From NCBI GenBank assembly GCA_965214755.1, contig OZ243979.1:344350-408349 (forward strand): a stretch of 64,000 nucleotides of DNA, given 5' to 3'. How positions within the stretch are numbered: position 1 is the stretch's first letter; each line of letters begins with the position of its first letter. Source of the stretch: an uncultured Candidatus Binatia bacterium. GTDB lineage: Bacteria > Desulfobacterota > Binatia > Bin18. This document shows positions 3,931 through 13,503 of the stretch, one piece after another. The translations under genes were made by a program, and so were the position numbers. The notes under the pieces are model-generated. The model saw only the letters and a list, made by a program, of their open reading frames with translations, was not told the origin of the DNA and did no database searches.

Positions 3931-4320
3931 TTAGCCAACCAGAATTTCTTTGGCGTGGATCGTATCCAGGTATTCCCGCACGGCTGTGATTTTGCCGTCC
4001 GATAATTCAATCAGAAAGTGATACTGGTTGTTATAGACCTTGCCGTTGGCCAACTCGCCATACGACTCGGCCTCAACCGCAACCCGGTCCCCTTCGGCAG
4101 TGACGCCTTTGGGCGTGATTTTCAGGCCGTTCGGCATCGCCGCGCCAATGCCTTTGACCAGTTCACCGAACTCCGCTTTGGTCTTGGTGCCGGACAGCTC
4201 GAACTTGCCGGCCACCCACCACGTGGCATCGTCGGTCATCAGGTCCAGTGCGGCGGAAAAATTCCCGGCGGAAAAATTCTCAAAGAAACCTAGGACAACA
4301 CCTTTATTCGCGTCACTCAT
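3931..4320 (-). CDS. NTF2/SnoaL-like (ketosteroid isomerase-like) protein
   Basis: MSDANKGVV...TAEGDRVAVEAES...YNNQYHF...VREYLDT. AGGAGG RBS upstream of ATG 4320. Confidence 0.9.
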   Translation of the reverse strand: MSDANKGVVLGFFENFSAGNFSAALDLMTDDATWWVAGKFELSGTKTKAEFGELVKGIGAAMPNGLKITPKGVTAEGDRVAVEAESYGELANGKVYNNQYHFLIELSDGKITAVREYLDTIHAKEILVG

Positions 4321-4480
4321 CTGGAGCCTCCTTTGCTGTGCACCGTCACACCGATGCCGATCCAAGTAAGATGTCCCCTTATAGCCCACCTGCCTGAGGC
4401 CGCGCAAGCGAAGCGGCGCGGGACCTGTCTCCGGGCTTCAGATACTTGTTGTGCCGAGCCGGTTCTCGTACGCTGCCGCG

Positions 4481-4774
4481 ATGAACTTTGAGTGGGACAA
4501 AGAAAAGAACAAGGAGAATATCAACAAACATGGATTAGATTTTGTCGATACGCAGAAAATGTTCGAGGCTCAGATGTTGACAGAGTTGGATACTAGGGAA
4601 GACTCTGGAGAGGATCGTTTTATTGGAATTGGTTTTCTCAAAAGCTATGTCGCGGTGGTCGTTTATACCGAGCCGGATGAGCAGACCATTCGTATCATCT
4701 CTTTACGAAAGGCCCTGAAAGATGAGCGCCAGAGATTTGAAAGAAGACTCTCAAAGCAATTGGGACAAGATTAA
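4481..4774 (+). CDS. brnT: BrnT family toxin (RelE-like ribonuclease)
   Basis: MNFEWDKEKNKENINKHGLDF...GEDRFIGIG...VVVYT...IRIISLRKA, the DUF497/BrnT signature. Confidence 0.92.
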   Translation: MNFEWDKEKNKENINKHGLDFVDTQKMFEAQMLTELDTREDSGEDRFIGIGFLKSYVAVVVYTEPDEQTIRIISLRKALKDERQRFERRLSKQLGQD

Positions 4775-7700
4775 TGAAATGACAGACAAAGATATTGATA
4801 CTTCCGACATTCCCCCCCTGGATGAAGCTTTTTTTGCGAACGCCAAGCTTCGACTACCAAGCGGCGGCATCAAGGTGAACAGGGTGCCCACGCCGAAGAC
4901 TGAGACTTTCTCTTTAGAGTTTTCACCCGGTCAGGTCGTGGTCTTGAGGTCCGACCCGTCCGTAAAGGGAGCGGTTGTTGAGGTGTTGCCGGGGCAGCCC
5001 GAAACCCGAGTCCGGGTCTTTGTGGCAGACAACGTTCAGACCTATTACGCCTCTCAGTTGCAGGCCGAAGACCACAGGAGTGAGGTCACTCCGCTTCCCT
5101 GTGAGGAATTCCACGCCTCCCTGACCGCGCAGCAAATACGGCATCCCAGCCTCTCGACCCTGTATTCACTCAACGCGGCCCGCGTTGATTTTATTCCCTA
5201 CCAGTTCCGTCCCGTACTCAGATTCATCCGGTCGGACCGGCCGCGCCTACTGATTGCGGATGGCGTGGGCGTCGGCAAAACAATTGAGGCCGGATTGATT
5301 CTGCGGGAGTTGCAGGCTCGGCGGGAAATCAACTCTATCCTCATCATTTGCCCTCGCCCATTGGTGACGGAGCGTAAGTGGGAACGTGAGATGAAACGCT
5401 TCGACGAACGTTTCACTCATCTGGATGGGAGAACTCTGAGATACTGCCTCAAAGAGATGGACCTTGACGGACAATGGCCCGACCAACATCGGAAAACGAT
5501 TTTGCCGTATTCGTTGTTTAACGAGGCGCTCCTGCGCGGTTCAGGGACCAATGGCAAGAAAAAGTCGGGAAAGGGCCTTTGGGACTTGGACCCGCCCCCA
5601 CGCTTTGATCTCGTGATCGTTGATGAAGCCCACCATATCCGCAATCAAAGCACCTATGCGCACCAAGCAGTCCGATTTTTCTGTGAGCACGCAGAAGCCG
5701 CGGTTTTTCTGACCGCAACCCCTATCCAACTCGGCAACCATGACCTGTTCGTACTGCTGAACACGCTTCGCCCCGACCTGATTTTGGATCAAGAGAGCTT
5801 TGAGCACCTGACAGAGCCCAACCCGTTCATCAATCAGGCTGTGAACCATGCACGGACTCAAAAGCAGGGCTGGACGGCTCAAGCAGTAGAAGCCTTGGAC
5901 CAGGCAGCCGCGACCGATTGGGGAAAAGCGATTCTTCAGCATAATCCTGCCTTCAAGCGAATCAGAAACCAGCTTGCTGAGGGAAGCGTTGCTGCTGACG
6001 AAAGAATCCAGTTCATCACGGACCTCGAAGCCCTGCATACCTTCTCGGGGATCATCAACAGAACGCGCCGGCGCGACATCGGCGCTTTCACCATTCGGAA
6101 GCCGGACACGGTCACGGTCGATTTCACTCCTGACCAACAACAGCTTCATGACGAGGTGCTCCGAGTCCAGGCCGAGATATTCAGTCGGCTGTACGGAGAT
6201 ATCTACGTGAAGTTTCTGATGACCACGATTCGACGTCAGGCCGCGAGTTGCCTATACGGACTCGCGCCTTTTCTCGAGGACATCCTGAAGCGCCATATCG
6301 ACGAATTGGCCTGGAACGAAGCTGATGATACGGGGACGGTCCCGTCAGGCGATATTATCGACTCAATCCAATCGCAAATTGAGTCGATTAGAGAGAAAGC
6401 CCAGTCCCTTGACCCCTACGATCCGAAACTGGAAGCGCTACGCAAGATCATCCGGGACAAGCAAAAGCTGCCGAACAATAAAATCATGCTGTTCAGCAGC
6501 TTTCGCCACACCCTTTCCTATCTGGATAAGCATCTCAGGGCCGATGGTTTCCGCGTCGGCATGATTCACGGCGGAACCCCGGATGAGGAGCGTATCGTGC
6601 TTCGGAACCGTTTCGAGAAGCCACGAGAGGACACCAACTGTCTTGACGTGTTGCTCTTCTCGGAAGTCGGCTGCGAAGGGCTGGATTATCAGTTCTGCGA
6701 CTGCATTGTGAACTATGACCTGCCCTGGAATCCCATGCGCGTTGAGCAACGTATAGGCCGTATTGACCGCAACGGTCAGCAGAGTGAGAGTGTCGCTATT
6801 GTCAACCTGATCACGCCGGGAACCGTAGACGCAGATATCTATGAGCGTTGTCTTCTCCGTATCGGCGTGTTCGAGAATGCCTTGGGGGGCAGCGAAGAAA
6901 TCCTTGGAGACATCGCCAGCGAGATCAAAAACATCGCGGAAAACTATACCCTTAGCGAAGAAGACCGGAGAGCCAAGCTACAACAGTTGGCAGACAACAA
7001 AATCCGGTTGATACAGGAACAGGAAAGACTCGAACAGCAGCAGATGGAGTTGTTCGGTATTCGTCTGCCCGAAGACCAGATGAAGAAGGAGATCGAAGAG
7101 GCGACCAGCTTTTGGCTGTCTCCGTCGTCACTTTATCGGCTGGTCACGCTCTATCTACAAAAAACCTGTGGGAAGGCGCACGAATTCATCCTGGGCGAGA
7201 AACCCCTGAAAACGCTACGCCTTTCGCAAGAGGCGCGGAACAGCCTGCTGCGAGACTTGCAGCAACTCCCCAGACAAAACACCCCTCCTTATCGAGAGTG
7301 GGAAACCTGGCTAAAGGGAAGTGAACAACATCTGCCCATCACCTTCGAGTCGAGCTGTGCGAGCCAGAGTCCGAAGGCCGCTTTCATCATGCCGCTTCAT
7401 CCTTTGGTCAAGCAGGCAGCCCTGTCGCTCGAAGCAACGCCCCAGGCGGCCACCACCTTGAAGGTGCAGACCAGCGAGGTTCCTGAAGGTCGCTACGAAT
7501 TTGTTATCTACCAGTGGCGATTTCATGGCCTTCGGGAGGATTTGGTCCTCAAGCCGATTGCCTCGGCCAAGGAATTAACACCTCATCTCAGTCGTCTGCT
7601 TGAAAAAGCAGTGGACGGCCTGCCTGATGATCCGGTGGACGGTGCTACTCCGGTGCCGGATGCGCTGGACGCGCAACATCAGAAACTGTGGTCCGAAGCC

Positions 7701-7964
7701 CGCGCGCAACATCAACAACACACACAAGAACTCGTTGCGTCTCGGAAAGAAAGCCTGTCAACCAGCCATCAGGCACGCCTGGCCCTTCTCCAGGACCAAC
7801 TCAACCAAGCCAGCAATGAGAACATTCAACGAATGCGGCGGTCCCAAATCGAGACGGCAGAGGCAGATTACGAACGACGTATTCAGGAGTTGGACAAGGC
7901 TCTGGAAAGAGCGGATATTCTCACCGAGCCAGTGGCGTATGGGGTTGTAAGTATAGGAGATTAA
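4722..7964 (+). CDS. SNF2/RapA-like helicase with an N-terminal BrnA-antitoxin-like segment
   Basis: aa1-46 NWDKINEMTDKDIDTSDIPPLDEAFFANAKLRLP is BrnA-like. Then PYQ, LLIADGVGVGKT, VDEAHH, LTATP, EVGCEGLDYQ, NYDLPWNPMRVEQRIGRIDR (SF2 motifs). Confidence 0.9.
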   Translation: MSARDLKEDSQSNWDKINEMTDKDIDTSDIPPLDEAFFANAKLRLPSGGIKVNRVPTPKTETFSLEFSPGQVVVLRSDPSVKGAVVEVLPGQPETRVRVFVADNVQTYYASQLQAEDHRSEVTPLPCEEFHASLTAQQIRHPSLSTLYSLNAARVDFIPYQFRPVLRFIRSDRPRLLIADGVGVGKTIEAGLILRELQARREINSILIICPRPLVTERKWEREMKRFDERFTHLDGRTLRYCLKEMDLDGQWPDQHRKTILPYSLFNEALLRGSGTNGKKKSGKGLWDLDPPPRFDLVIVDEAHHIRNQSTYAHQAVRFFCEHAEAAVFLTATPIQLGNHDLFVLLNTLRPDLILDQESFEHLTEPNPFINQAVNHARTQKQGWTAQAVEALDQAAATDWGKAILQHNPAFKRIRNQLAEGSVAADERIQFITDLEALHTFSGIINRTRRRDIGAFTIRKPDTVTVDFTPDQQQLHDEVLRVQAEIFSRLYGDIYVKFLMTTIRRQAASCLYGLAPFLEDILKRHIDELAWNEADDTGTVPSGDIIDSIQSQIESIREKAQSLDPYDPKLEALRKIIRDKQKLPNNKIMLFSSFRHTLSYLDKHLRADGFRVGMIHGGTPDEERIVLRNRFEKPREDTNCLDVLLFSEVGCEGLDYQFCDCIVNYDLPWNPMRVEQRIGRIDRNGQQSESVAIVNLITPGTVDADIYERCLLRIGVFENALGGSEEILGDIASEIKNIAENYTLSEEDRRAKLQQLADNKIRLIQEQERLEQQQMELFGIRLPEDQMKKEIEEATSFWLSPSSLYRLVTLYLQKTCGKAHEFILGEKPLKTLRLSQEARNSLLRDLQQLPRQNTPPYREWETWLKGSEQHLPITFESSCASQSPKAAFIMPLHPLVKQAALSLEATPQAATTLKVQTSEVPEGRYEFVIYQWRFHGLREDLVLKPIASAKELTPHLSRLLEKAVDGLPDDPVDGATPVPDALDAQHQKLWSEARAQHQQHTQELVASRKESLSTSHQARLALLQDQLNQASNENIQRMRRSQIETAEADYERRIQELDKALERADILTEPVAYGVVSIGD

Positions 7965-7982
7965 AGGTCAGAGGAGAGGGCT
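7782..7982 (+). repeat. direct repeat copy 1: helicase 3' end
   Basis: gcccttctccaggaccaactcaaccaagccag...gtggcgtatggggtt...agagggct recurs at 8646-8839. Confidence 0.95.
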
Positions 7983-8480
7983 GTGAACAGAGACATGGCC
8001 GAACGCCCCGTCGTGTACTTGGAGACGACGGTGGTGAGTTACCTTACCGCTAGGCCGAGCCGTGATGTCGTCATGGCAGGACATCAGCAATCGACCCAAG
8101 AATGGTGGGAGAATAGAAAGCAGGATTTCAGAGTTGTAGCCTCGCAACTTGTGCTCCAAGAGGCAGGTAGAGGCGATAGGCAGGCAACTCAGCGAAGACT
8201 GGATATTCTGGGGGGAGTAGAATTGGTTGAGATTACACCAAATGCAACGACCTTAGCGCGTGCTTTGATAGAAAACGGAATAGTTCCTGAAACTTCCCTT
8301 GAGGATGCTCTCCATGTTGCTATCGCCGTGGTCAACGGCTGTAAGTATCTGGTAACGTGGAATTATCGCCATCTGGCCGGCGCAGGCGTGAGGGCACGAA
8401 TCGAAGCGTTCTGTCGCGATGAAGGATACGAGCCGACGATCATCTGTACGCCAGAGGAACTTTTGGAGGATGAAATATGA
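7983..8480 (+). CDS. PIN-domain (VapC-like) toxin
   Basis: VYLETTVVSYL...EDALHVAIAVVNGCKYLVTWNYRHL...ICTPEEL. True start may be ATG at 7995. Confidence 0.88.
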   Translation: MNRDMAERPVVYLETTVVSYLTARPSRDVVMAGHQQSTQEWWENRKQDFRVVASQLVLQEAGRGDRQATQRRLDILGGVELVEITPNATTLARALIENGIVPETSLEDALHVAIAVVNGCKYLVTWNYRHLAGAGVRARIEAFCRDEGYEPTIICTPEELLEDEI

Positions 8481-8680
8481 AAGACGACCCTATCGTTGCA
8501 GAAGTCCGGCGCATCAGGCATGAGCACGAGGCGCGGTTCAAATACGACTTGGATTTGATCGCGGAAGACCTCAAAGCCCAAGAGCAGGCAAGCGGCCGGC
8601 TCTATATCAGCTTACCGCCCCGTCGCACGAAACCGAGAACGCGCAGCCCTTCTCCAGGACCAACTCAACCAAGCCAGTAA
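8477..8680 (+). CDS. small putative antitoxin partner of the PIN protein
   Basis: DDPIVAEVRRIRHEH...YDLDLIAEDL. ATGA overlap with the PIN gene and GGAGG RBS. Its tail runs into the helicase repeat. Confidence 0.75.
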   Translation: MKDDPIVAEVRRIRHEHEARFKYDLDLIAEDLKAQEQASGRLYISLPPRRTKPRTRSPSPGPTQPSQ

Positions 8681-8839
8681 TGAGAACGTTCAACGAATGC
8701 GGCGGTCACAAATCGAGACGGCAGAGGCAGATTACGAACGGCGCGTTCAGGAGTTGGAGAAGGCTGTGGAGAAGGTGGATATTATAGCCGATCCAGTGGC
8801 GTATGGGGTTTTGACTATAGAGGAGATGTAGAGAGGGCT
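8646..8839 (+). repeat. direct repeat copy 2: start-less alternative helicase C-terminus
   Basis: Open reading ALLQDQLNQASNENVQRMRRSQIETAEADYERRVQELEKAVEKVDIIADPVAYGVLTIEEM* (stop 8829-8831). Confidence 0.93.
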
Positions 8840-8857
8840 AATACCGATCCTTCCGAG

Positions 8858-9162
8858 ATGATTGAGGAGATAAGGGCTTGGATTGATGAATGCTTTCTGT
8901 CTTTGAATGCTGCTTCTTCGGATGAGGAAAAGAAGGATGAAGCAAAGGTAAGATACCGAACAGCGTGTTTCGGAATTGCCGCTCAAACTGAACGGACGTC
9001 AGCTTGTATCAAATCGGAGACTCGAAGAGGCAAGATTTCCTCGAGAACTAGACGGATACTCTATCGAAACGAATTCTAATACGGATTCAGAAGGCGAAAT
9101 GTCTTCGGCGGATTGCTGAGATGCTTCAGATTGGCGTTTCAGTCAATGTTAGCGATTACTAA
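8858..9162 (+). pseudogene. possible degraded hypothetical gene
   Basis: 73-aa ORF 8858-9079 in AT-richer DNA. Another frame continues LIRIQKAKCLRRIAEMLQIG to a stop at ~9162. No family recognised. Confidence 0.3.
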
Positions 9163-9208
9163 GCACGCCTCACAAAACAGCCTCTCATGAGGTTTCAGCC
9201 CCACTCTG

Positions 9209-9274
9209 CTGGATTCCCGTTGTCACGGGAATGACAGACCGGGTTTCGTCATACCTGCGCAAGCAGGCATCTGG
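9209..9274. repeat. paired palindromic REP-like element (ATTCCC-N8-GGGAAT type)
   Basis: ggattcccgttgtcacgggaatgac...gtcatacctgcgcaagcaggcatc. Related pair at 27668-27736. Confidence 0.7.
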
Positions 9275-9321
9275 ATTTCAGGAGGAAGGCGGAGCTTCGT
9301 GAGGAGCGCTAGGAAGATTCC

Positions 9322-12300
9322 ATGCAGAGCGACTATACACAAATAACGAAGTACAATGAGCGCCAATTGGGACAGGATACCGCGTCTCGAAAGACGCAAA
9401 TTTCTATGTACTCCGACCCGACCCACTTTGTCTATGAAATCCTACAGAACGCGGATGACTCTGGAGCAACAGAAGTAGTCTGCAAACTCTCGAAGAACGA
9501 GCTTCAGATTGAACACGATGGAGAGCCTTTTACCGAGGAGAACGTTAAAGCAATTACTTCCTTTGGCAAAAGTACAAGCCGTGACGATCTCGTCAAGACG
9601 GGACGTTTCGGCGTTGGTTTCAAGTCCGTCTTCGCCTTCACAGCAACACCAATAATCATTTCAGGCGACGAGCATTTTCAGATATACGGTTTGTACCGAG
9701 TCAAAGAGCATCCCTATCCAGATAATTTTTCACGTTCCCGTACTCGCATCGTTCTCCCGTTTAACCACGAATCCGAACAGCCGGATTATGTAGAAGACTT
9801 GATGTCGCAGGAAGAAGCCTACTCGAAGATTTCGACCTGCCTGACGACGCTAAATATGAATACCTTGCTATTTACGCGAAGACGCCATAAACGATAACGC
9901 CAGACTGACCACGATTACCGACGGAGAGCGGTTGAAGAAGTATCTTGTGTTTTCGCGGATTCCGCGGCGAGAGAATCAGGAATATAAAGCGGTAGAGATC
10001 GTCTTTGGCATTGATGCGAAAGAGCAAATCACGGCATCAGACGACTTCCTCTATGTCCTATTCGCTACAAAACAGGAGACTCGTTTACAGTTCATACTTA
10101 ATGGCCCCTACCGAACAAACCCGTCACGAGAGACAATTTCGGAAGATGACCCTTTCAACCTATATCTCATCAAGGAAACGTGTGAGTTGATGAGGGAGGT
10201 GCTTCTACAACTCCGAGAAAAGAAACTTCTGACGACCCAATTTCTGTCCGTACTCCCAAACAGAGACGATAATCTAAAAGATTTCTACGTACCCCTCTTT
10301 GAGACCATAGTCGAGACCTTTCACGACCGGGAATTAGTTCCGACAGACGATAATCGGTACGCATCGGCGGCCAATGTACTCCAAGGTCCGGCGCCAATCC
10401 GCGAAGTCGTCACAAAGGAGGAGTTGTCGTTTTTTATTGGTCGCCCTGGAGTCTGTTGGGCGAAAGGAGCTTGGCAGAACCCCCGTACCGCTGCCTTCCT
10501 TCGTTGTCTGGGTATTGAGCAGTGGGGCTGGGAGGAACTCCAGACAACGTTGTTGGACAAGTATGGTCGGAACTACTCACTGAATGACGAGGCTGACGCT
10601 TGGCTAGCCGCACGTGGCGATGCCTGGCTGCAAAAGTTGTATCTTCTTCTTGCTGATGCAATCAGAAGGGCCGAGTGTTCGGAATGGACGCTGAGGCGCT
10701 TGAGGCGCTGTCGTATCATACGAGTGCTCGAAGACGGCAGACAGAATCACGTCGCAGGTTCTGAGGCGTACTTTTCGAAACCGGGCTACGGAAAACTTCC
10801 TCGTATTAAGTCTGCCATCTTGAAAGGCAAGAATCAGCAAGAGAAGCAGAAAATACATGAAAGCCTTATCGCCTTGGGCGTTTCTAAAATAGGCGAAGAA
10901 AAACGAATAGATTCATTATTAGAGACTTTCTACAGTGATGAATCGGGTCCAGTGGTGTCAACTCAGCAACACTTACAGCACCTAAGGACTTTTATTAAAT
11001 GGTGGAAGAAAGAAAAAGATGCGAGCAAGTTTGAGAACTATGCCATTTTCTATACCAATGGGAAAAAAGAGCTGCGGCAGCCAAGCAAGTGTTTTCTTGA
11101 CTCGCCCCTCAGAAAATCCGGTCTGAGTGCTATCTATTCGCAAGACACTTCCGGCATCCCACGAAAACTCAAGCTGTGGAATGATTATCGAAGGATCGTT
11201 GGTGAAGGATTTTGCGACTTTGCCATTGCGTGTGGTGTTGTTGACCAGCTTCCTATTAAGCGCCAGTCCTGCCGGTCCCATGCTATGTGGTATGGGAGGA
11301 TAGAAGTATGGGGAGCACGTGAAACAGGGATGGGAAGAAATGAAGATTATTATATTCCAGACTTGAATAAACTTCTGAAGCCTCGGAGGCATGAGATCAA
11401 TTTGCTCATCTGGAACACTGTCAGCAAATCTGACCCTAAAGTATTTGAAGCGGTCTACAGCCCCAATAGACAGTACGAACGACGTAACGGACTACGTAGC
11501 CAAAAATCCTCTCTGATTTTAGGCCTGACTGACATTGAATGGATACCGGACAAAAAGGGGCGGTTCCACAAGCCAGGTGATCTGACAAAAGAACAGCTTC
11601 ACCGGGACTTCAAGTATGACAACCGTAACAGCTGGTTGGATGAAATCGATTTTGGAGAGAAAGCGAAGAAGGCAAGCGAGGAATACAAAAAGCGTAAGGA
11701 AAGCGCTTCTTCCCTCAGCGTTCCGGTTGCATGGGTCGAGTACATTTCCGCGTTATCTGAGGAGGAACGGGGAAAAGAGTCCAAAAAGCTAGAGGATTAC
11801 GTCAATCGTCAGAATGTTGAGCGTAAGCGTGCTCAACGTATGCAGCAAGAGAGCCTTCCTTACAACAAAGCCCTATCTGAAGCTTTCTCAGCACCCGGTA
11901 GGGATATATCTAGTAACGGTGGAGGAAGTAGAGGAAATGGAGGTTTGTCCCCAAATCCCTCACGCCGCCGAGAGAAAACTCAAGAAGACCTCGCCATCGC
12001 AATCGAAAACGAAGGTAAGAGTGAAGAACAGTTCTCCTTCACTCTTCGCAAGAAATGGAAAGGTAAAAACGACCAAGTTCGGATAAGCCTTGCCGAATGG
12101 TACGGCGGTCGGTGTCAGATTTGTGAGAAGACCTTTAAGCAGCGAAGCGGAGAGCCTTACTTTGAAGGTTTGTATCTCGTGTCTCGCACAACCGCTCAAT
12201 GGCGGGACCGAGTGGGCAATGTTCTCTGCCTTTGCGCTGAGCACAGTGCAATGTTTCAGTTCGGTCCGAGAGAAGTTGAAGAAGACATTATCCAGCAAGT

Positions 12301-12481
12301 AATGCGGCTTAAAGTAGAGGCAGAAGGTGGCGACAGCCCTCCCATGATTCGGATGAAGCTATGTGGAGAGCCAGTTGAAATTGAATTTGTAGAGAAGCAC
12401 CTGATTGATCTACAGGAAATGATTAAGAAGTCTCAGGAGTTGGAGTTAGAACCATCTACTTCAGCAGTTGAAACAGGGTGA
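9322..12481 (+). pseudogene. sacsin-like GHKL ATPase with C-terminal HNH-like nuclease, split by a frameshift near 9875
   Basis: 5' ORF: YEILQNADD, HDGEPF, GRFGVGFKSVF (GHKL boxes). 3' ORF (frame open from ~9860): FILNGPYRTNPSRE, then CQIC...GNVLCLCAEH (HNH-like). Confidence 0.8.
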
Positions 12482-12733: not shown

Positions 12734-12866
12734 CGACGGGATTTGAAAACGATTCTGCAAAACTACGACGAGAGGTCGGCATAGGATTTTGCCGTGCTCT
12801 GAAAAGGCATCACTCAACGAAGCGACGGTTGCGATAATTCCTTCCAAACGCAAGGAGAAAATTCCC

Positions 12867-13136
12867 ATGCCCTATACCAAGTACACGCCTCAAGAAGTCG
12901 AATCACGAGGTGAGGCAACATATGCGCAACAGATTCGGGACAAGGTGGACCCTAAGCACAAAGGCAAGTTCTTAGTCCTCGACATTGAAACGGGTGATTA
13001 CGAAATTGACGCGGACGATTTGGTCGCAACGCAGCATCTCCTAACCACTCATCCCACTGCGGTCATTTATGGTTTGCGCATTGGTTTTCCAACTGCCTAT
13101 CGTATCGGTGGTGGCTTCTCGGTGGAAACACCATGA
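12867..13136 (+). CDS. small hypothetical protein (DUF5678-like) paired with an aspartyl protease
   Basis: AAGGAG RBS. HKGKFLVLDIETGDYEID...RIG pattern. ATGA overlap with the next gene. Confidence 0.7.
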   Translation: MPYTKYTPQEVESRGEATYAQQIRDKVDPKHKGKFLVLDIETGDYEIDADDLVATQHLLTTHPTAVIYGLRIGFPTAYRIGGGFSVETP

Positions 13137-13503
13137 TGATTGGACAGATTACGGCTAACCGAGAAGCTGTCATAGAATTGGAAGTTGTTGGCTCAGAGCA
13201 GAGAAAAGAAAAAGTTGAGGCAGTTATTGATACGGGCTTCAATGGCTATCTGACCCTGCCGGGTGATATGGTCAGCCGTCTCAAACTTCAACTGGCGGGG
13301 AATCGGCGGGCCATCCTTGGTGATGGGAACACCGTGGTGCTGGATGTGTATCTTCCAAGATGGTATGGCATAGCGACGAACGCGAAGTACTTGTTTTGCA
13401 AACAGGAGGCGGCTCGCTGATCGGCATGTCCTTACTCTATGGAAATCGCGTGACGCTAACGATTGTAAATGGCGGTGACGTAAAGATAGACCCTCTTCCG
13501 TAA
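13133..13503 (+). pseudogene. clan AA (retropepsin-like) aspartic protease, frameshifted near 13355
   Basis: AVIDTGFNGYLTLP active site. Shifted frame resumes KMVWHSDEREVLVLQTGGGSLIGMSLL...DPLP* (stop 13501-13503). Confidence 0.82.

Follow-up and report, generated by a model that had tools for sequence, protein, structure and literature searches.

A gene for a BrnT-family RNase toxin and, overlapping it, a single open reading frame (ORF) that begins as a BrnA-type antitoxin and continues as a SNF2 helicase lie at 4481 to 7964 of the stretch of DNA analysed here, the window, which comprises 64,000 nucleotides from an uncultured Candidatus Binatia bacterium (GenBank assembly GCA_965214755.1, contig OZ243979.1, positions 344,350 to 408,349 of the forward strand). 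The same fusion recurs in other assemblies, its antitoxin-derived segment is conserved, and relatives of the helicase carry pieces of other antitoxin or immunity families at the same position, several of them directly behind a gene for the matching toxin. Based on these observations, we believe that the helicase N-terminus acts as an exchange site for RNase effectors, which would be either fused to it, as HEPN domains, or recruited through an antitoxin or immunity piece.

The brnT gene (4481..4774, plus strand; all positions are those of the window) starts at an ATG within the ORF 4451..4774 and encodes 97 amino acids (aa). Its product matches the BrnT_toxin profile (PF04365) from end to end (positions 1-77 of 77; E = 1.5e-23, 83.3 bits against a cut-off of 34.5) and has 7vd7 (6e-11) and the BrnT entry 3u97 (5e-6) as relatives in the Protein Data Bank (PDB). 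The second ORF begins with an ATG on the same strand (4722..7964, 1080 aa), and the two genes share 4722-4774, the overlap of 53 nt that the initial annotation had reported; they read it in different frames. This toxin-first order is also that of four canonical BrnT/BrnA loci of the same genome. Within the 1080-aa protein, residues 1-46 (4722..4859) form the BrnA-type segment, which presumably binds the toxin; residues 47-65 (4860..4916) form a linker rich in proline, threonine, and serine; and residues 66-1080 (4917..7964) form the helicase core, for which Pfam reports SNF2-rel_dom (1.3e-16), ResIII, and Helicase_C (7.2e-21), with no HEPN domain in the ORF. The translation shows GxGKT Walker A, DEAH, TATP, and QRxGRxxR motifs, so that the uninterrupted reading into an intact SNF2 helicase, also proposed at the outset, holds. 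An AlphaFold model of the full-length fusion was poor, with a mean predicted local distance difference test (pLDDT) score of 53.3, a predicted template modelling (pTM) score of 0.33, and values below 50 for residues 1-65. Promoter and terminator scans of 4100-5100 and 7800-9400 gave nothing beyond what shuffled sequence gave.

The identity of the N-terminal segment comes from its homologues. Residues 1-60 match no Pfam family even at E<=10, residues 1-66 match none in NCBIfam, and the BrnA_antitoxin profile (PF14384) finds six places in the genome, none of them within the window. A phmmer search with residues 1-66 against 1.84 billion representatives gave 466 matches at E<=0.001 (best 5e-14), almost all of them proteins of 45-130 aa whose own N-termini align to query residues 1 to ~52. 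A BrnA_antitoxin domain stands behind the matching segment in 6 of the 21 matches scanned, a sample picked with a bias toward longer proteins. When these sequences are aligned, the canonical proteins pass from a common '...LRLP' into the strand of the ribbon-helix-helix (RHH) domain and the window ORF passes into a Pro/Thr-rich linker of 19 residues and then the helicase; the RHH part is missing from the fusion. A BrnA-type N-terminus without its RHH tail is what the initial annotation had read here, and the homologues bear it out. The piece retained is therefore best read as what precedes the RHH domain in a BrnA-type antitoxin, the part that would neutralise the toxin. The same segment also occurs in short proteins (P0251, P0349, P0290, P0292, P0294, P0280, and P0246) whose C-terminal parts are not RHH domains: Hypoth_Ymh in two of them, unassigned domains of 150-230 aa with an R-x5-H motif, and a two-helix membrane tail. 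Because they are fused to such other C-terminal domains too, BrnA-type N-terminal peptides look like portable docking elements.

Short-read contigs from two runs of one study (X1, 4300-5065; X3, 4300-5500) span the junction, including 4850-4920, without differences, although these runs may be the source sample of the assembly itself. A search with residues 1-60 among 706 candidates of 594-1890 aa returned five clusters, and all five are this helicase (P0001, P0002, P0003, P0010, and P0409). Among the 14 members listed, besides the representative, for the 42-member P0002 cluster, the segment is present in six; seven others begin at or near the core or with another short N-terminus and one is a fragment. 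In all, at least nine further distinct proteins from other assemblies are predicted to carry this fusion in frame (P0002, P0003, P0010, P0391, P0392, P0394, P0395, P0403, and P0409), which makes it recurrent in independent assemblies. A chance in-frame deletion, the alternative first offered for it, is unlikely as the whole story. Four fusion proteins with cores 81-90% identical have 39-43 of the 46 segment residues and 14-18 of the 19 linker residues identical, with no indel; judged by these alignments, the segment is conserved as strongly as the helicase core across lineages that have diverged by 10-19%. Codons 1-18 overlap brnT and are therefore under extra constraint; the remaining 28 codons of the segment lie outside the overlap. 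BrnT homologues 75-87% identical to that of the window are found on contigs of the same lengths as those of four fusion helicases (108709, 16777, 4887864, and 499003), and brnT probably adjoins the fusion there as well.

The helicase itself belongs to a large family. A homologue search gave 7755 proteins at E<=0.001, the best 120 of them 73-87% identical, and most relatives of 1018-1021 aa begin where residue 66 of the fusion stands. In a scan of one genome per species we found 214 relatives, of which the best 80 loci, from many phyla, were kept. In 72 of the 80, as in the window, a gene for a GHKL (sacsin-type) Tiamat-like ATPase follows on the same strand; this gene encodes ~1026 aa and begins at a median of 3 nt past the helicase stop. 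Judged by these neighbourhoods, the helicase is the first gene of a widespread two-gene module composed of a SNF2 helicase and a Tiamat-like GHKL ATPase, a pair we regard as a mobile candidate anti-phage module. In the accessible part of the Tiamat preprint, Swi/Snf helicases, often nuclease-fused, are described as conserved neighbours of Tiamat, and the Tiamat of B. cereus was tested (bioRxiv 10.64898/2026.09.30.754977). The initial annotation had instead invoked DISARM and Zorya. Like DISARM DrmD, the protein is a SNF2 helicase, and its top PADLOC match is indeed the DrmD profile (PDLC02623, 1.5e-115, residues 66-1038); unlike it, the window helicase scores 322.5 bits against the NCBIfam model DISARM_DrmD (NF038317), for which the cut-off is 610, and no DrmA, DrmB, DrmC, or methylase gene was found in the island by Pfam and PADLOC scans. 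For these reasons we reject membership of DISARM. With a DrmD score under the cut-off and a Tiamat-like GHKL ATPase as its conserved partner, the helicase should not be viewed in terms of DISARM or Zorya.

By extending the helicase frame upstream in all 80 loci, we could read the state of each N-terminus. An HEPN_Swt1 domain is present in 38 (Pfam-checked on L013, 1.1e-17), nothing recognisable in 20 (two of them cut by a contig end), a domain of ~280 aa of no known family in eight, and the anchor motif is absent in one. The other 13 carry an antitoxin or immunity piece in frame, namely a second BrnA-type piece with the motif 'K-x-E-Y-D-F' (six loci), a whole DUF4926 domain (four loci, 1.7e-26), the first third of CopG_antitoxin (two loci, profile positions 2-26 of 79), and an XRE-type N-terminal part, 'FSELTKDF' (one locus). 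The second BrnA-type piece resembles, by eye only, the part ahead of the RHH domain in two BrnA proteins of the genome that holds the window; tblastn of the L041 copy against plasmids gave no match. The XRE-type piece resembles the first ~40 residues of an annotated plasmid-borne XRE regulator whose gene follows that of a RelE/ParE toxin (E = 9e-3). When the N-terminal pieces of the window, L039, and L041 were searched by sequence against the PDB, no meaningful match emerged. P0026 and P0027 show a further N-terminal type, a fused 'MKDD' protein. One candidate, L046, whose match seemed to start at query residue 6, was rejected as it lacks the BrnA-type segment and has a stop just past the helicase start. 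Every piece joins the core just ahead of a conserved 'EF' through a short stretch rich in proline, serine, and threonine, six different antitoxin or immunity families being in frame at this one site, and all fusions keep either a part outside the DNA-binding domain or an entire small immunity domain.

The initial annotation had suggested that homologous helicases have an N-terminal HEPN domain, and this proved correct; the accessible text of a 2013 survey likewise lists HEPN fused to a SWI2/SNF2 ATPase (PMC3710099). With HEPN_Swt1 at this site in 38 of the 80 loci, it is fair to speak of an 'effector swap', and the other antitoxin pieces that stand at this site with toxins of their own extend the idea. 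A FastTree tree built from 200 helicase cores requires 18 changes of N-terminal state, against a minimum of eight, a count that recombination within the core could inflate, and the same types of piece occur on different cores; the tree leaves out rows of <950 aa, those lacking the anchor motif, and those with <85 residues ahead of it. The starred set of 46 rows to which the window belongs comprises 31 bare, 9 BrnA-type, 4 XRE-type, and 2 'MKDD' helicases.

Some loci show further peculiarities around the helicase start. The ~280-aa domain is found in Latescibacterota (L021, L053, L061, L072, L073, and L077; truncated in L060 and L074); it matches no Pfam or NCBIfam family, and the ESM Atlas gave leads only below 0.9. 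A gene combining HARE-HTH with the restriction-endonuclease domain Mrr_cat stands directly upstream of the HEPN-helicase in L044, L045, L059, L065, and L082, and may be a third component in that HEPN subgroup. In L012 (6562-7034) an 88-aa ORF and a PIN_3 toxin gene reduced to its first half lead out of frame into the helicase start, which implies that the 5' boundary of the cassette there cuts a toxin-antitoxin (TA) toxin gene. A MEMEF, MEMGF, or MEIEF helicase start as in L012 recurs in L015, L016, L019, L030, and L031, the 88-aa ORF in L016, L019, L030, and L031.

The pieces are matched by the genes ahead of them. For each locus we took the largest same-strand ORF ending between 300 nt before and 120 nt after the helicase start; 13 loci had none, and the 67 ORFs obtained were all scanned against Pfam at E<=1e-4. 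Seven of the 67 belong to the BrnT, DUF6883, or Gp49 families, and all seven precede the matching piece: BrnT before the CopG-type piece in L007 and before the second BrnA-type piece in L041, Gp49/RelE before the XRE-type piece in L039, and DUF6883 before DUF4926 in L008-L011. None of these families was found among the 67 ORFs before HEPN-fused or bare helicases. Particularly instructive is L007, in which a canonical pair of BrnT and full CopG antitoxin (5313-5845) is followed 1.1 kb on by BrnT and the helicase fusion (6672-7141), the latter keeping only profile positions 2-26 of 79 of CopG_antitoxin. DUF6883 was recently proposed to be a BECR RNase toxin against which DUF4926, encoded downstream of it, confers immunity (bioRxiv 10.64898/2026.08.28.747851); for the Gp49-type toxin of L039 a PDB search by sequence found no relative. 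All the upstream toxins are, like HEPN, known or predicted RNases. We give this pattern moderate weight only, since RNases dominate type II toxins anyway.

Downstream of the fusion lies what looks like the trace of a second module. A gene for a VapC-like PIN toxin of 165 aa (7983..8480, plus strand) matches Pfam PIN below the cut-off (3e-4), and its 30 nearest ESM Atlas clusters all belong to a single PIN/VapC set (score 0.98). Its partner, an ORF of 67 aa (8477..8680, plus strand) that overlaps it by 4 nt, is 73% identical (48/66, E = 5e-28) to residues 1-66 of the helicase P0027. Next comes the 3' end of a second helicase allele (8646..8831, plus strand), 88% identical to 7775-7956 (direct repeat D1), a remnant of about the last 180 nt that starts abruptly in the alignment. 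The simplest reading of these similarities is that 7983-8831 is the stump of a second module of PIN, MKDD-helicase, and GHKL genes whose helicase was almost wholly deleted, and that the BrnT-type helicase was brought in beside it afterwards. The Tiamat-like GHKL gene of the window (9322..12481, plus strand) matches PADLOC TmtA (2.6e-33 and 1e-22) and Pfam SACS/HATPase_c_3, and is split into 9322..9897 and 9932..12481. Tiamat proper, the single-gene TmtA, is characterised by a PD-(D/E)xK nuclease domain at the C-terminus; the 849-aa piece matches no Pfam family and has a Cys-rich C-terminal motif visible in the translation. At the end of the island stand two overlapping ORFs (12789-13420; 115 and 95 aa), the second with a weak aspartyl-protease match (E = 0.02). 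The island as a whole (~4.4-13.7 kb) holds brnT, the helicase, the PIN pair, the TmtA-like gene, and small ORFs; its G+C is below that of the flanks, which carry housekeeping genes. No orthologue of the helicase was found in the 24 other genomes of the genus searched, and of 400 other genomes drawn from the class three had matches, none covering residues 1-41. Elsewhere in the same genome a decayed copy (G000:C1:4387328-4387513) is 56% identical to helicase residues 57-118 and contains an internal TAG.

How might the pieces work? We propose that an antitoxin piece docks an RNase effector on the helicase and silences it, in place of the HEPN domain, a proposal for which we judge the prospects of being right and wrong to be about equal. 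The ORF 4722..7964 would be a real, translated fusion in which a flexible linker and the SNF2 helicase have replaced the RHH domain of a BrnA-type antitoxin. BrnT, made from the overlapping upstream gene, would be bound and silenced by the segment, so that the RNase is docked on the helicase in the position taken by the covalently fused HEPN RNase domain in about half of the homologues. HEPN would thus be the fused solution and the antitoxin and immunity pieces the non-covalent one, in which the toxin is silent while bound; the pairs recruited would be BrnT with BrnA- or CopG-type pieces, Gp49/RelE with the XRE-type, DUF6883 with DUF4926, and probably PIN with the 'MKDD' protein. On sensing foreign DNA, the helicase-GHKL pair would release or activate the RNase, leading to abortive infection. 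A more sweeping version, which we find doubtful, holds that type II antitoxins have repeatedly been trimmed to toxin-binding peptides and grafted onto a single conserved site of a SNF2-GHKL motor, arming it with interchangeable stand-alone RNases (BrnT, RelE/Gp49, DUF6883/BECR, and PIN) instead of a fused HEPN domain, and that the motor, rather than proteolysis of a labile antitoxin, frees the toxin. In this version, a tract of seven cytosines within the segment (4812..4818), whose C8 form stops the frame after 34 codons, might even switch docking on and off, possibly through slipped-strand mispairing that turns the fusion itself on and off.

The binding step was modelled for BrnT with residues 1-66 of the fusion, using author-made alignments A1 and A2. 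The complex scored 0.55, the best of three controls scored 0.00, and the result was classed as 'weak support'; agreement between the runs covers at least 78% of contacts, and the pLDDT of the partner is at least 62. Of 80 solved complexes, 58 reach the same mark, as do 2 of 110 mismatched pairs; at scores of <=0.60, however, it is reached by only 7 of those 80 and by both mismatches. Scores in the range of 0.55 mislead more often than not unless the pair is likely beforehand, and here the prior for binding is high because the genes look like a cognate TA pair. We take the model to indicate a likeness to a binding pair and nothing stronger. Accordingly, the early suggestion that the retained segment is the toxin-binding part stands as regards its origin, a non-RHH N-terminal piece of BrnA, and receives weak support as regards the binding of BrnT.

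Apart from the score band of the model, a number of observations count against docking. The list of in-frame pieces is biased, having been found by reading the helicase frame upstream; the DUF6883 of L011 covers only 71 of 110 profile positions; and in the window the GHKL gene is displaced 1.36 kb from the helicase and frameshifted. Most of the remaining ones speak for non-functional carry-over, in which a cassette recombines at a fixed 5' boundary and often ends up within or next to the TA genes of defence islands, the pieces are in-frame leftovers, the helicase is made from an internal start, and BrnT is an orphan, held by another BrnA of the genome or attenuated. Four canonical BrnA loci do lie elsewhere in this genome, and the window BrnT has Thr24, Gln31, and Ser42 in place of the Ala, Pro, and Tyr that at least 90% of 36 aligned relatives share and that the BrnT copies beside other fusion helicases mostly retain. 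In-frame GTGs occur in the linker at 4875 and 4884, the latter 6 nt past a Shine-Dalgarno-like AAGGTG, and an unfused helicase may therefore also be produced from an independent start, for which the initial annotation had pointed to a GTG near 4883. Closely related helicases within the same 90% cluster occur without a piece, which shows that the helicase can do without one, and P0008 retains only ~10 residues of the BrnA-type segment, a mini-remnant. Six of the 13 antitoxin-piece loci have no upstream toxin gene (L024, L033, L036, L043, L049, and L056); five of these are related Latescibacterota in which a dehydrogenase gene abuts the piece, and in four of the five the first codons of the piece are gone. 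In run X5, which comes from another study, a contig ~97-99% identical carries one more C behind 4811, giving the C8 form, with brnT open and free of indels there, and a 34-aa protein, P0243, is identical over fusion residues 1-32. The truncated PIN_3 gene that meets the helicase start out of frame in L012 and the 'MKDD' ORF that lies out of frame in L020 are likewise what carry-over would leave behind. Given, however, that the segment is as conserved as the core with no indel or stop, that six families are in frame at one site and each has its Pro/Ser/Thr-rich linker, that every fusion keeps the non-DNA-binding part or the whole small immunity domain, and that the tree calls for 18 changes of state and places the same piece types on different cores, we consider carry-over rather unlikely.

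The same architecture and cognate pairing would be seen if the piece silenced BrnT for the purpose of addiction or guarding. The toxin would then not be an effector; instead, with its sole antidote tied to the helicase polypeptide, loss, truncation, or phage-induced destruction of the helicase would be lethal, and the outcome would be that a mobile defence module is stabilised or that anti-defence proteins which remove the helicase are punished. Such a role would suit a mobile and patchy module (0 of 24 genus genomes; 3 of 400 class genomes), and the remnant of a second, deleted helicase allele at the locus indicates that deletion pressure is real; moreover, ATPase-type antitoxins with nuclease or RNase toxins are established in phage defence, as far as the accessible part of PMC10440598 goes. 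It leaves unexplained, however, why 38 of the 80 loci have a fused HEPN RNase at this site, to which the logic of addiction does not extend, as well as the loss of toxin genes with the fusion kept in six loci and the C8 variant, which truncates the piece while brnT is open. We therefore think addiction or guarding, and with it either outcome, unlikely. A missing base or a chimeric join that opened the frame from a truncated brnA to the helicase would also yield such an ORF, and both the frameshifted GHKL gene nearby and the C homopolymer in the segment, of a different size in one run, fit an assembly or sequencing artefact. Yet the X1 and X3 contigs show no differences, with the reservation as to their sample made above, and nine or more further distinct proteins predicted from other assemblies have the fusion in frame; we reject an artefact as the main explanation on these grounds and consider it highly improbable. 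The GHKL split itself may be either a true pseudogene or an assembly error: tblastn of intact homologues changes frame near 9869-9882, with ~14 residues absent. Given the split in this gene and the frameshift that interrupts the BrnA piece of a near-identical strain, the local copy gives the impression of partial decay, and the module in this genome is probably no longer complete. Docking of the toxin on the helicase, although no better than evenly poised, is the explanation that we favour.

How does the fusion compare with systems already described? BrnT and BrnA are a type II TA system, reportedly described by Heaton et al. in 2012. As there, a BrnT-family gene comes first and the overlapping downstream gene has a BrnA-type N-terminal segment; in contrast, the partner in the window lacks the RHH DNA-binding and dimerisation domain and is a 1080-aa SNF2 helicase. 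Autoregulation of the BrnA type is not expected, since the fusion has no RHH domain. With the helicase module that is often HEPN-fused, the window shares the helicase family and the Tiamat-like GHKL partner, whereas the window and 13 of 80 loci carry an antitoxin or immunity piece and a separate toxin gene. The Tiamat preprint mentions a helicase to which a RelE-like nuclease domain, and hence the toxin itself, is directly fused (bioRxiv 10.64898/2026.09.30.754977). PARIS and other NTPase 'antitoxins' (NetFlax), to judge from the available text of PMC10440598, offer an analogy in that an NTPase would hold a nuclease toxin inactive until a phage cue; the NTPase of the window is, however, a SNF2 helicase rather than an AAA or ABC ATPase, would dock its toxin through a borrowed type II antitoxin peptide, and has a GHKL ATPase as a third partner.

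TA RNases have been placed next to larger systems before. Ahead of RtcR-associated CoCoNuT systems, as in the window, a gene for a BrnT-family RNase is co-directional with a helicase-containing defence system, and such BrnT-like toxins have been proposed to contribute to cell death; CoCoNuTs are McrBC-type, however, and the accessible part of that paper describes no antitoxin-derived piece on the downstream protein (PMC11090510). HicA occurs in non-canonical contexts in which TA RNase toxins have enlarged partners without a DNA-binding domain, or stand beside defence genes (pVips), which recalls the window; HicA is nevertheless a different toxin family, and the words 'helicase' and 'SNF2' are absent from the text as available (PMC10865869).

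Already known, then, are BrnT, BrnA-type antitoxins, HEPN-SNF2 fusions, helicase-linked Tiamat-like genes, NTPase 'antitoxins' such as PARIS, and, from the accessible portions of the papers concerned, TA RNases beside defence genes (PMC10865869) and BrnT-like genes before CoCoNuTs (PMC11090510). In the literature searched, which was covered in part and without the figures and supplements of preprints, we found no prior description of an antitoxin piece on a SNF2 helicase. What appears to be new, to judge from these searches, is the recurrent grafting of antitoxin or immunity pieces onto the N-terminus of this helicase. The finding bears on an open question, the relation of TA pairs to larger anti-phage systems. 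At one and the same position, relatives of a conserved helicase bear either a fused RNase domain or one of five or more different antidote pieces with RNase toxins of their own; this range amounts to a natural series of constructs for studying how a motor may control a free-standing toxin through a borrowed antitoxin peptide. The module of helicase and Tiamat-like ATPase gains a candidate effector. If the more sweeping version of docking, which we find doubtful, is true, it would represent a general route by which TA pairs become the effectors of larger defence systems.

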